A stretch of 2,837 nt of DNA from a virus (Duplodnaviria; Heunggongvirae; Uroviricota; Caudoviricetes), in IMG/VR virus record IMGVR_UViG_2541047795_000005; one strand, 5' to 3'. Below the pieces are notes generated by a model, which was not told where the DNA came from, did no database searches, and was given only the letters and a program-made list of their open reading frames with translations. Made by a program: the position numbers and the translations under genes. Of the stretch, positions 1-2,837 are shown piece by piece; within the stretch, counting starts at the first letter, position 1; the number at the start of each line of letters is the position of its first letter.

Positions 1-186
1 TCTGCAAGCGCGGCGGCTGCTTCTGCCACTGCATCAGCTAACAGTCAAAAAGCAGCAAAAACCAGTGAAACCAACGCAAAGGTGAGCGAAACAGCGGCTG
101 CGAACTCAGCGAAAGCATCGGCAGCAAGCCAGACGGCAGCTAAAGCAAGCGAAGATGCAGCCAGAGAGTACGCAAGCCAGGCTGCG
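1..186 (+). repeat. Ala/Ser-rich low-complexity coding repeats (fibre shaft region) inside the tail-fibre CDS
   Basis: Translation SASAAAASATASANSQKAAKTSETNAKVSETAAANSAKASAASQTAAKASEDAAREYASQAA shows reiterated A-A-K/S-A-S units built from GCN/AGC/AAA codons. GC is locally high (hand count about 53-58% on 60-nt blocks). The approximate end of the repeat is judged by eye. Confidence 0.55.
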
Positions 187-1506
187 GAGCCGTATAAATA
201 TGTCTTACAGCCGCTGCCTGATGTGTGGATACCATTTAACGATTCGCTGGATATGATTACGGGCTTTTCGCCATCATATAAAAAAATTGTTATTGGTGAC
301 GATGAAATAACGATGCCTGGCGACAAGATTGTTAAGTTTAAACGTGCATCGAAAGCAACCTATATTAACAAATCTGGTGTGCTGACAGAGGCTGCCATTG
401 ACGAGCCACGATTTGAACGTGATGGCCTGCTTATTGAGGGGCAAAGAACTAATCTTCTGCTTAATTCAACAAATCCATCTAAATGGAATAAGTCAGGCAA
501 TCTGGAACTCACAGAAATATCCACGGATTCTTTTAATTTTACTTATGGGAGATTTACTGTAAAAGATACTCTTATTGGTCAGACAAGTGCTATTAATATC
601 GTAACGGTTTCTGGCAGTAAAGGGTTTGATGTCACAGGTGATGAAAAATATGTGACCATTTCATGCCGTGTAAGAAGTGATGTTGAAAATGTAAGGTGTC
701 GTTTAAGATTTGAACACCATGATGGTTATACTTACACTTTTTTGGGAGATGCTTACCTCAATTTATCAACACTTGTAATTGATAAAGCTGGTACTGCTGC
801 AGACCGTATTATTGCAAAGGCTGTAAAAGATGAGGTTACTGGTTGGATTTTCTATCAGGCTACAATTAATGCACTAGATACAGAGAGCATGATTGGTGCG
901 ATGGTTCAATACGCTCCTGTAAAAGGTTCAGGCACAGCATCTGGAGACTATCTGGATATCGCAACTCCACAAGTGGAAGGTGGATCAAGTGCTTCGTCAT
1001 TTATTGTAACTGATATAACTGCAAGCACTCGCGCAAGCGATATGGTGACAGTCCCAATCAAGAATAACCTTTATAATCTTCCTTTTACGGTTCTTTGTGA
1101 GGTACATAAGAACTGGTATAAAACGCCAAATGCAGCGCCACGTGTTTTTGATACCGGCGGTCATCAAACCGGAGCGGCTATTATTCTTGGCTTCGGTCGT
1201 TCAACAGATTACGACGGATTTCCTTATTGCGATATTGGAGGAGCTAACAGACGGGTAAACGAAAACGCATCGCTTGAAAAAATGGTTATGGGGATGCGTG
1301 TAAAGTCAGAGCAGTCTACGTGCTCAGTAAGTAACGGGCATATATCCAGCGAAACAAAAACCACATGGTCCTGTATTCAGAACACCGCAATTATCCGTAT
1401 TGGAGGCCAGACTACAGCCGGGTTACGTCATTTATTTGGTCATGTCAGGAATTTCAGAATATGGCACAAGGCATTGACTGATGCTCAGGTGGGGGAGTCA
1501 ATCTAA
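1..1506 (+). CDS. Phage tail-fibre / receptor-binding protein, 5'-partial (gene starts upstream of the window), with a C-terminal LamG/concanavalin A-like lectin-type signature
   Basis: Frame 1 is open from nt 1 with no stop until TAA at 1504-1506, so the GTG at 82 given by the ORF track is internal, not the true start. The translation begins SASAAAASATASANSQKAAK..., Ala/Ser-rich low-complexity repeats typical of fibre shafts. The C-terminus ...GLRHLFGHVRNFRIWHKALTDAQVGESI (nt 1420-1503) resembles the terminal strand motif of LamG-type jelly-roll domains. The segment ...GVLTEAAIDEPRFERDGLLIEGQRTNLL... resembles phage structural proteins. The gene is followed by a translationally coupled downstream gene. 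Confidence 0.8.
   Translation, partial: SASAAAASATASANSQKAAKTSETNAKVSETAAANSAKASAASQTAAKASEDAAREYASQAAEPYKYVLQPLPDVWIPFNDSLDMITGFSPSYKKIVIGDDEITMPGDKIVKFKRASKATYINKSGVLTEAAIDEPRFERDGLLIEGQRTNLLLNSTNPSKWNKSGNLELTEISTDSFNFTYGRFTVKDTLIGQTSAINIVTVSGSKGFDVTGDEKYVTISCRVRSDVENVRCRLRFEHHDGYTYTFLGDAYLNLSTLVIDKAGTAADRIIAKAVKDEVTGWIFYQATINALDTESMIGAMVQYAPVKGSGTASGDYLDIATPQVEGGSSASSFIVTDITASTRASDMVTVPIKNNLYNLPFTVLCEVHKNWYKTPNAAPRVFDTGGHQTGAAIILGFGRSTDYDGFPYCDIGGANRRVNENASLEKMVMGMRVKSEQSTCSVSNGHISSETKTTWSCIQNTAIIRIGGQTTAGLRHLFGHVRNFRIWHKALTDAQVGESI
1491..1497 (+). promoter_or_regulatory. Shine-Dalgarno-like ribosome-binding site for the CDS starting at 1506
   Basis: GGGGGAG lies 8 nt upstream of ATG 1506-1508, and the ATG overlaps the upstream TAA stop (TAATG), which suggests translational coupling. 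Confidence 0.55.
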
Positions 1507-1787
1507 TGAAAGATTTAACACTCAAATTTGAAGACAGGGCCGACTTTTCGGCCTTTATGGAGAGTATTGGCTATTATGATGACGAGTCGATGCAGGATGA
1601 TATTCTTATCGACGTGATAGGTAACGTGTACAAAGAAACCGGAGAACTGACTGAAGATGGCGAACCGGTATGTGTTAAGGAAGACGGATATTTTGTAAAC
1701 GTGCGCATCATTAATGATTCGCAAATATCGTCATTATTCGATGAATACGTGGTTGCTGTTGAGCATCAACTTCGTGGCTGGATGTGA
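1506..1787 (+). CDS. Small strongly acidic hypothetical protein (93 aa), function unknown
   Basis: ATG at 1506 overlaps the stop of the upstream fibre gene, with an SD-like GGGGGAG upstream, and the ORF ends at TGA 1785-1787. By hand count it has 22 Asp/Glu against 7 Lys/Arg in 93 residues. I recognise no domain. It sits between two fibre-like genes on the same strand. Confidence 0.6.
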   Translation: MKDLTLKFEDRADFSAFMESIGYYDDESMQDDILIDVIGNVYKETGELTEDGEPVCVKEDGYFVNVRIINDSQISSLFDEYVVAVEHQLRGWM

Positions 1788-1790
1788 GGA
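1786..1790 (+). promoter_or_regulatory. Shine-Dalgarno site for the CDS starting at 1797
   Basis: GAGGA (within tGAGGAAGaaaaATG) with a 6-nt spacer to ATG 1797; it overlaps the TGA stop of the upstream gene. Confidence 0.6.
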
Positions 1791-1796
1791 AGAAAA

Positions 1797-2330
1797 ATGG
1801 CTACATCGACAGTAATTCCTGATGACATCAAAACGCTAAAATCCGACGTTAGCAAATTAAAAAACGATCAAGGAAGCTACGCAACAAAATCTTATGTAGA
1901 CAATAAAGAAGAAATCGTTGGTGATTGGTATGTATCCTGTTATCAGAAGATATTGCCAACTACTGGAGCTATATTTAGGGGTAAGCTGCGCTCGACTAAC
2001 AAGACGGCTGGAATTGAAAACGCTTATAGTGAAATATACACCAGAAAAAGTATTGACAGTCCTGAAAACGCAATGGCGCGCCTTATCATAAATAATAACG
2101 GGAAAAGCATTTTCTGGGACTTTAGCGATCTTTATGGCGGAACGATGATTTTTCCCGGTGGCAGTGGTTACCTCAAAATGGGTAACTGTCTCATGTCATA
2201 TGGTAAGCGGGGAAGTAACGCGCTTATTAAATTTGATTATACCGACTCATTACAGATCAAATATGCCAATCATGGGTCGACCATGACATTAAACACGCAA
2301 GGAACCGCGTATGCTGGTGTGTCTGCGTAA
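1797..2330 (+). CDS. Tail-fibre-like protein (177 aa); probably the N-terminal body of a fibre gene whose C-terminal chaperone domain is now the separate ORF 2391-2837 (possible pseudogene fragment)
   Basis: Good SD and ATG start. The N-terminal segment DIKTLKSDVSKLKNDQGSYATKSYVDNK looks like a short coiled-coil or fibre motif. The ORF is AT-rich (about 33-37% GC on hand-counted blocks). It ends at TAA 2328-2330, and the same frame reopens immediately and runs into the S74 domain. From memory only, the pair loosely resembles short fibre-remnant ORFs annotated in cryptic E. coli prophages, but I cannot verify that and assign no symbol. Confidence 0.6.
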   Translation: MATSTVIPDDIKTLKSDVSKLKNDQGSYATKSYVDNKEEIVGDWYVSCYQKILPTTGAIFRGKLRSTNKTAGIENAYSEIYTRKSIDSPENAMARLIINNNGKSIFWDFSDLYGGTMIFPGGSGYLKMGNCLMSYGKRGSNALIKFDYTDSLQIKYANHGSTMTLNTQGTAYAGVSA

Positions 2331-2378
2331 TTATGGGGAAATTCCAGCCGTCCTGTTGTTTATGAAGTCGGTGTTGAT

Positions 2379-2383
2379 GGTGG
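2379..2383 (+). promoter_or_regulatory. Weak candidate Shine-Dalgarno (GGTGG) for ATG 2391
   Basis: GGTGG lies 7 nt upstream of ATG 2391. The same bases are in-frame codons (GVDGG) of the open spacer, so this may be coding sequence rather than a dedicated RBS. Confidence 0.3.
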
Positions 2384-2390
2384 CGCTTAT

Positions 2391-2837
2391 ATGTTCTATG
2401 CGCAGAAAAATACCGATAACACCTATATGTTAAGCGTTAATGGTGCATGTCATGCCACCGCATTTAACCAGCATTCCGACCGGGATCTGAAAGACAACAT
2501 TCAGGTGATCGATAATGCAACCGACCGCATCCGTAAAATGAACGGCTATACATACACGCTTAAAGAAAACGGTATGCCCTATGCTGGTGTCATTGCACAG
2601 GAAGCTCTGGAAGCAATCCCAGAAGTTGTAGGTTCCGCAATGAAATATCAGGACGGTGCGAGCGGATCGGAAGGTGAAGAAGGTGAACGTTATTACACAG
2701 TAGATTATTCTGGTGTTACTGGCTTGCTTGTTCAGGTAGCCAGAGAGTCAGACGACAGAATAACAGCACTGGAAGAAGAAAACGCAGAATTAAGACAAAG
2801 ATTATCTGTAATTGAGGCGGCGCTTGCGTCTAAATAA
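2391..2837 (+). CDS. S74-type intramolecular chaperone (self-cleaving) domain protein, 148 aa; likely the detached C-terminal part of the upstream fibre gene
   Basis: The translation contains the hallmark layout of the C-terminal intramolecular chaperone domain of phage fibres and endosialidases. It has HS-DRDLKDNI with Ser and Lys five residues apart (the Ser-Lys dyad), then GYTYTLKENG, then AGVIAQEALEAIPEVV, then YYTVDYSGVTGLLVQVAR, then a terminal coiled coil ITALEEENAELRQRLSVIEAAL. It is in the same frame as ORF 1797-2330. The first in-frame start after the TAA is ATG 2391, and the stop is TAA 2835-2837. Confidence 0.7.
   Translation: MFYAQKNTDNTYMLSVNGACHATAFNQHSDRDLKDNIQVIDNATDRIRKMNGYTYTLKENGMPYAGVIAQEALEAIPEVVGSAMKYQDGASGSEGEEGERYYTVDYSGVTGLLVQVARESDDRITALEEENAELRQRLSVIEAALASK
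2478..2834 (+). other. Peptidase S74 / intramolecular chaperone domain with predicted autocleavage site between Ser (2475-2477) and Asp (2478-2480)
   Basis: Motif match by eye to the S-D-x-x-x-K catalytic arrangement and the conserved GxIAQE and coiled-coil blocks of this family. Domain boundaries are approximate. Confidence 0.6.

Follow-up and report, generated by a model that had tools for sequence, protein, structure and literature searches.

A base-by-base mixture of two prophage gene copies very probably explains an interrupted tail-fibre gene in an Escherichia coli HVH 182 draft scaffold

The second tail-fibre gene in the stretch of DNA analysed here (2,837 nt, hereafter the window) contains a 453-nt patch that, judging by its pattern of bases, is very probably an artefact of draft assembly in which two gene copies of the same genome are mixed base by base. 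The window is identical to part of E. coli HVH 182 scaffold KE700603.1, in draft GCA_000458705.1 (L006 8205-11041). A sequence-only reading of the gene had suggested that a foreign fibre body was exchanged onto a resident chaperone cassette, with a junction close to an interrupting stop codon. For the window we replace this suggestion, as the body is explained site by site by two known alleles.

Three reading frames on the same strand make up the window: the 3' part of an stf-like gene, an ORF of 93 amino acids, and a fibre gene of 346 codons (Table 1). The stf part has a weak Laminin_G_3 match at its C-terminus, and the start of the 93-aa ORF overlaps the stf stop in a TAATG. This ORF sits between both fibre genes in Tritos, ESCO3, PhiR11_1, and JenP1, and the gene order stf, 93-aa ORF, second fibre, 97-aa ORF is common to these four and to E. 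coli Ecol_316. The match of the second fibre to phrog_4563 is colinear and covers residues 1–177 and 179–346, and intact 346-aa homologues were present in 68 of 86 loci; in the window, the frame expected of this family is interrupted by a TAA. We attribute the TAA to blending, as a defect of the record, and a defect of the gene itself is not thereby indicated. The first 31 residues of the second fibre are probably its attachment end, by analogy with lateral fibres, which are conserved at the far N-terminus only (PMC8594841). E. coli genomes matching the window did so in a median of two copies, and in up to seven.

Table 1. Features of the window, with the layers of A-locus and B-locus sequence along the scaffold (window positions)
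Feature	Position	Strand	Description
stf 3' part (lambda Stf-like side tail fibre)	1..1506	+	phrog_1419 tail protein, E 5e-268
stf variable receptor-binding island	about 401-1100	+	purely A-locus type
93-aa ORF, conserved	1506..1787	+	phrog_1361, E 2.5e-46
Second, short tail-fibre gene, 346 codons	1797..2837	+	phrog_4563 'tail fiber protein'; one frame through the in-frame TAA
N-terminal segment, aa 1-31	1797..1890	+	conserved; 0 mismatches to many alleles
Patch; hypervariable body (aa 32-183) in natural alleles	1891..2343	+	apparent A/B site-by-site blend
In-frame TAA, codon 178	2328..2330	+	T of B's TTA, A of A's CAA
Last 44 codons of mature fibre	2344..2474	+	identical to A, B and many alleles; travel with the chaperone
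Peptidase_S74 intramolecular chaperone and C-terminal coiled-coil helix	2475..2834	+	PF13884
Ser227 and Lys232	2475-2477 and 2490-2492	+	motif SDRDLK
Layer, pure A	1-1100		243 A/B-variable sites
Layer, pure B	1531-1892		9 A/B-variable sites
Layer, A/B mixed	1903-2343		
Layer, pure B	2344 into sitD		

Differences between the window and its relatives were concentrated in the patch. Compared with the closest complete genome, Ecol_316, the window had 86 mismatches over 2837 nt and no indels, and 77 of the 86 lay within positions 1891-2343 (binomial p 4e-51). Identity to the closest relatives was 70%–93% in this interval versus 97%–100% on both flanks. The region 1880-2345 had a best match of 83.9% among 5,426 complete E. 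coli genomes, and the C block at 2346-2837 was matched at 99% or more in 270 complete E. coli records. Across these complete genomes, INPHARED, IMG/VR, and a protein set of 5.8 billion clusters, we found no natural donor of the patch closer than that nucleotide match or closer than 82% in amino acids. The 177-aa product of the interrupted gene, recorded as 'hypothetical protein G834_01509, E. coli HVH 182', stood alone in a collection of 15 billion proteins, and searches of PDB and Pfam with this 177-aa body returned no matches. We note that many database relatives of the gene are 'partial' proteins on contigs of 300–800 nt; the relatives in the large protein-set search were almost all truncated or partial, with none of 346 aa, and the lack of close matches was never used alone.

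Since the patch had no donor in the databases, we tried a two-parent test. From the 86 loci we gathered 56 distinct intact alleles, and took as parents allele A (L007, Tritos-like, from the Ecol_316 trp-side prophage) and allele B (L066, from the Ecol_316 sitABCD-side prophage). No window base in the patch was missing from the other alleles. A and B differ at 169 patch sites; the window agreed with A at 94 of these and with B at 75, and none was private or in a third state. The order of the two along the patch was that of a random sequence, with 86 switches (83.4+/-6.4 expected for random order) and 44 runs of length 1. The 54 other natural alleles were mostly A-like or B-like, and those distant from both carried 9–63 private sites. 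An example of the blended haplotype in the window is GGTGTGTCTGCGTAATTATGGGGAAATTCC, and an example of a chimeric 21–31-mer is TCTGCGTAATTATGG. The product encoded by the window had 13 residues found in neither parent. Among the 21-mers of the gene, 403 (starts 1888-2329) were absent from every other locus; a chimeric 30-mer around the stop was absent from IMG/VR and from metagenome contigs, in which the pure A and pure B 30-mers were both present. We also considered the patch as a rare natural allele and rejected this, given the absence of any donor closer than 83.9% from the collections searched and the assignment of every base to A or B.

Both parents are found together in the nearest complete genomes, and the scaffold itself bears signs of a difficult repeat. 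Each of the six complete genomes with the best full-window matches (97.0%) has a further site that matches allele B at 100%. The two copies in Ecol_316 are 146.5 kb apart, A (3521440-3522480) in a prophage beside ompW/trp and B (3667939-3668979) in a prophage beside sitABCD-uspF-ompN, the latter being the context of the HVH 182 scaffold as well. In a three-way alignment over 3.7 kb, each scaffold base was that of the A locus or the B locus, arranged in successive layers (Table 1), with the B base at sites 1531-1610 of the 93-aa ORF. Upstream, the scaffold is 99.98% identical to the B locus. It has N-gaps at L006 6067-7506 and 8108-8202, the window starting 2 nt past the second, and the 601-nt contig between the gaps is 100% pure B, corresponding to gene positions 42-642, which comprise the variable body and short flanks. 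The pure copy seen in HVH 182 is B only, and pure A is seen in related complete genomes. Overall, we see what is expected of a collapsed repeat: two co-occurring copies explain all bases, the chimeric k-mers are absent elsewhere, and gaps and a stray contig lie next to the affected gene.

We propose a route by which such a blend could arise. HVH 182 would carry two lambdoid prophages, each with a three-gene fibre cassette (stf-like gene, 93-aa ORF, and 346-aa fibre), and the cassettes would differ only in two variable islands, one being the receptor-binding island of stf and the other the second-fibre body. The assembly would have passed from one copy into the other through their identical stretches, and within the second island each variable site of the consensus would have received its base from either copy. 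By-products of this blend would be the in-frame TAA, the 177-aa G834_01509, and a 148-aa S74 ORF. Unresolved repeat ambiguities may have been flattened to one base each; ALLPATHS-LG keeps local ambiguities where repeat copies are indistinguishable (PMC3483556). Since a pure de Bruijn assembler gives no k-mers that are absent from the reads, some step of consensus building, polishing, or ambiguity flattening has to be supposed. One flattening rule, the choice of the alphabetically first base, was tried and rejected, as it fits only 80 of the 169 sites. The case resembles collapsed or mis-joined repeats in short-read drafts in having two near-identical copies, breakpoints in stretches of identity, adjoining gaps with a stray bubble-branch contig, and parental bases only. 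It differs in that the copies here are 37% apart over 453 nt, which is above the usual range of collapse.

The stop codon is readily produced by the same mixing. Codon 178 in natural alleles is CAA, AGT, TTA, AAA, AGA, CGA, or AGC, and the TAA of the window takes its T from the B codon and an A from the A codon. Of random site-by-site blends of A and B, 51% had an in-frame stop, always at codon 48, 85, or 178, and the stop lies near the module junction because codon 178 is one of these three. The interrupting stop of the sequence-only reading is accounted for by two sense codons, CAA and TTA. We rejected a programmed stop or readthrough, since all 56 intact alleles have an amino-acid codon there and other loci are disrupted at other positions.

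Base composition did not divide the gene into two parts. The sequence-only reading had described a step between an AT-rich fibre body and a GC-balanced chaperone module. Its hand counts were exact (36.7% GC at 1801-1860, 33.3% at 1861-1920, 46.7% at 2521-2580, and 48.3% at 2641-2700); the four counted blocks are selected extremes of ordinary scatter. The standard deviation of GC in 120-nt windows over 208-2837 was 0.041 versus a binomial 0.045, with no excess. On the two sides of the stop, GC was 40.6% (1797-2330) and 44.8% (2331-2837; Fisher p=0.19). A scan with 1000 shuffles placed the best change point within the gene at 1978 (35.4% to 44.2%, likelihood ratio 4.8), far from the stop, and it was equalled by 31% of base shuffles (permutation p=0.31). 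The patch at 1891-2343 had 41.1% GC versus 45.1% in the C block at 2344-2837 (p=0.21). Split into halves likewise, one natural parent allele had 43.6% and 45.4% GC (p=0.58) and the other 38.8% and 44.8% GC (p=0.051); GC3 was flat in one of them and shifted in the reverse direction in the other.

Codon positions and the location of the low-GC stretch account for what had looked like a step. Upstream versus downstream of the stop, there was no difference in GC3 (40.4% versus 37.9%) or GC2 (42.1% versus 39.6%), and only GC1 differed (39.3% versus 56.8%, p=0.001). This difference arises because the chaperone half is rich in glycine, alanine, valine, aspartate, and glutamate, which have codons starting with G and make up 43.5% of the C-terminal half versus 28.8% of the N-terminal half. 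The GC1 shift is one of amino-acid content, not of mutational history. In the low-GC blocks at 1801-1920, 90 of the 120 nt fall inside the conserved N-terminal segment 1797-1890, which is approximately 100% identical in relatives, has 37.2% GC (mean 36.1% across 56 alleles), and has the lowest GC along the gene in every one of these alleles. The AT-rich stretch is therefore not the variable body for which it had been taken. A foreign segment would be expected to bring a significant GC shift that is seen at GC3 and falls at the homology breakpoints, and none was found in the gene. With no significant step and a flat GC3, composition is silent on whether the halves have separate histories.

These results bear on an alternative in which the window holds a real pseudogene, formed when a foreign, AT-richer body recombined onto a resident GC-balanced chaperone cassette with the crossover beside a nonsense mutation. 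We consider this very unlikely. The drop in identity between the two conserved flanks would fit it, as would the reassortment of bodies and C blocks among natural alleles and the sporadic disruptions at other positions of the gene (in loci L043, L050, and L040). However, a foreign body should have bases of its own, and the patch has none; A and B alternate randomly along it, often at adjacent nucleotides. The GC step is non-significant with GC3 flat, the low-GC stretch belongs to the conserved N-terminus, and a mixture of two sense codons accounts for the stop. Additionally, a genuine pseudogene would carry its nonsense mutation on a natural haplotype, and the 453 nt around this stop are not a natural haplotype.

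Blending could also have taken place in the cell, by repeated very short gene conversion or patchy mismatch repair between co-resident prophage copies. Both donors are on one chromosome, in direct orientation and with identical flanks, and tail-fibre genes are recombination hot spots. This nevertheless strikes us as highly improbable, since it needs approximately 86 exchanges in 453 nt at 37% divergence, many of them between neighbouring bases and with no new mutation. The product would be non-functional, yet a pure B copy of the segment is kept in the same scaffold, and nothing similar occurs in other genomes among the 5,426. The chance is very slim that the patch is the true HVH 182 sequence, with co-resident prophages shuffling the fibre body at near single-nucleotide grain; if it were, fibres would have a way to diversify in vivo, by 'family shuffling', for which there is no earlier description, seen here in a non-functional result.

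We give almost no credence to the patch as a real allele ancestral to, or intermediate between, A and B: a true ancestor would also have no private sites and would interleave A and B states, as observed, but it must agree with A-like alleles where they carry the B base and with B-like alleles where they carry the A base, and the window did so only at chance level (18 versus 21 for L060 and 16 versus 13 for L004; 14 alleles tested, odds ratios 0.6–2.1, all p>0.07), a TAA-bearing ancestor could not yield two intact lineages, and A and B are precisely the pair of copies that the nearest complete genomes carry.

Setting the probable assembly blend aside, the natural gene is modular. The two Ecol_316 copies differ at 1 site in the N-terminal 94 nt, 171 in the 453-nt body, and 2 in the C-terminal 494 nt. 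Across 57 sequences, a 5% divergence cut gave 11 body types and 8 C-block types in several combinations, and pairwise distances of body and C block had a correlation of 0.30. Searched separately, the halves had very different distributions, whereas a shared distribution and identity profile would have spoken against separate histories. The body half matched 2 PHROG families and 12 phage records, each from an Escherichia lambdoid phage or a Nonagvirus, and the S74 half matched 548 phage records in a wide range of genera, as well as 34 PHROG fibre families (343–1803 aa) at their C-termini. The idea of separate histories for body and chaperone therefore stands on homology, through reassortment and differing distributions, and finds no support in composition. 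The module boundary, at 2343/2344, is 44 codons upstream of the cleavage serine and not at the chaperone start. In T5 pb1, autoproteolysis involves residues that lie 14–25 aa before the cleavage site, and the chaperone wraps around the domain ahead of it (PMC4690869); the position of the present boundary would fit a similar role for upstream residues.

The downstream half has the characteristics of an S74 intramolecular chaperone. It matched PF13884 with 53.7 bits (gathering cut-off 22, E 2.5e-14) over aa 49-100 of the downstream part, and in the motif S227-D-R-D-L-K232, the residues S49, D50, and K54 of the half-protein were invariant in a 31-sequence alignment. An AF2 model of the C half (pLDDT 80) placed a helix at 126-167, and Foldseek matched the model to 7DC3 (E 3e-4), 3GW6 (1e-3), and 3GUD (4e-3); the sequence of the S74 half also matched PDB 6F45. 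The profile match, a Ser and a Lys five residues apart, a predicted alpha/beta fold with a long C-terminal helix, and a place at the extreme C-terminus were thus all found. Relatives have intact copies of the real gene, whose product is most likely a short fibre that forms trimers. Folding of the trimer would be driven by the C-terminal domain, which would afterwards release itself by cleavage just ahead of Ser227, with Ser227 and Lys232 as the predicted pair, and the variable body (aa 32-183) would set what the fibre binds. A literature search for the role of the second fibre returned nothing specific.

Compared with known S74 fibres and spikes (phage K1F endosialidase, T5 pb1, and the S16 long tail fibre), the gene shares the Pfam S74 domain and the C-terminal coiled-coil helix, and the predicted fold of its C half matches the intramolecular chaperone structures 3GW6, 3GUD, and 7DC3. 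The spacing of the SDRDLK pair equals that of Ser1264 and Lys1269 in T5 pb1 (PMC4690869). In contrast to pb1, with 1396 aa, the natural second fibre has 346 aa, and about 226 after the predicted cleavage. It further differs from these systems in being the second fibre of a lambdoid/Nonagvirus stf cassette and in having a body with no detectable relative in PDB or Pfam. A conserved far N-terminus with hypervariable distal parts is also seen in Stf-type mosaic loci of lambdoid prophages and small siphoviruses (BASEL, Queuovirinae/Drexlerviridae; PMC8594841). As in such loci, the cassette is common to temperate lambdoid phages (Tritos and the PhiR phages) and virulent Nonagvirus (JenP1 and ESCO3); unlike in lambda, the position of Tfa is taken by the 93-aa ORF and the S74-bearing short fibre.

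The natural plan of a conserved N-terminus, a hypervariable body, and a conserved S74 block is already known in kind, and modular S74 fibre architecture is not new. The main value of these results is a caution on the public record, as the gene body and the stop codon recorded in KE700603.1 (with proteins such as G834_01509) are probably not real. Read from sequence alone, or through a standard identity profile, such a patch would pass for a rare divergent allele, a recombination junction, and a pseudogene. The two-parent test, with zero private sites and a random-order switch count, exposes blends of this kind cheaply, and they can readily be expected in paralogous fibre cassettes of prophages.

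The two prophages of E. coli Ecol_316, which carry the A and B copies of the fibre cassette, differ at 243 sites in the receptor-binding island of stf (401-1100), with identical sequence on both sides of the island. In the draft scaffold KE700603.1 (locus L006), we found that an A-type stf island sits in B-type prophage surroundings, which implies a chimeric join inside the 430-nt identical stretch at 1101-1530. Between the scaffold's two N-gaps, in the place expected for stf sequence, lies a 601-nt stray contig (L006 7507-8107) that matches positions 42-642 of the pure B second-fibre allele at 100%. The sitABCD transporter genes, which border the B prophage on its fibre side, occupy the uspF-ompN-ydbK (Rac-type) position (table below).

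Features in and beside the fibre cassettes (plain coordinates are those of the window)
Feature	Coordinates	Remark
93-aa ORF, phrog_1361	1506-1787	Start overlaps stf stop (TAATG, within 1503-1508)
sitABCD, iron/manganese transporter	L006 11729-15178; L087 10729-14178	Directly adjoins B prophage fibre end

Relatives of the second fibre gene in databases are mostly "partial" proteins, in many cases with hundreds of members, encoded on 300-800-nt contigs. Annotation also frequently shows a 254-aa form whose first residue is Met93. Draft assemblies seem to break regularly at this gene. Two of the partial proteins, P0002 and P0073, show 79% and 57% identity to the E. coli fibre halves, the parts on either side of the in-frame TAA, and come from 545-nt contigs labelled Streptomyces cocklensis and Aeromonas veronii, respectively; these organism labels probably reflect contaminated assemblies.

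Other copies of the second fibre gene carry apparent disruptions at sites that differ between copies, as seen in five IMG/VR loci (L043, L050, L040, L039 and L053; gene start at 3001). Depending on the copy, nonsense changes affect codons 195 and 300, the reading frame shifts near codon 176, or the gene is rearranged beyond codon 222; these may reflect genuine decay or additional assembly artefacts. The versions in the Nonagvirus phages ESCO3 (L003) and JenP1 (L005) are 351 aa long, and in their last ~30 codons the end of the C-terminal helix is swapped for a different tail, …KLESEVQELKAIVKTLLT…SSTDLP. This swap is an additional module boundary within the chaperone.

The largest composition shift in the window falls within stf, where GC drops from 57% before ~192 to 42% after it (raw likelihood ratio 17.3). 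This shift coincides with the end of the Ala-rich repeats in stf (1-207 versus 208 onward), and matches to T5-like and Nonagvirus fibre genes start at 208. One example is Salmonella phage FGS017, which matches the window at 92.4% across 208-1481.

The 93-aa ORF accompanies both fibre genes in lambdoid prophages as well as in the virulent Nonagvirus phages JenP1 and ESCO3. In lambda, by comparison, the position that this ORF holds in these cassettes is taken by the assembly chaperone Tfa.
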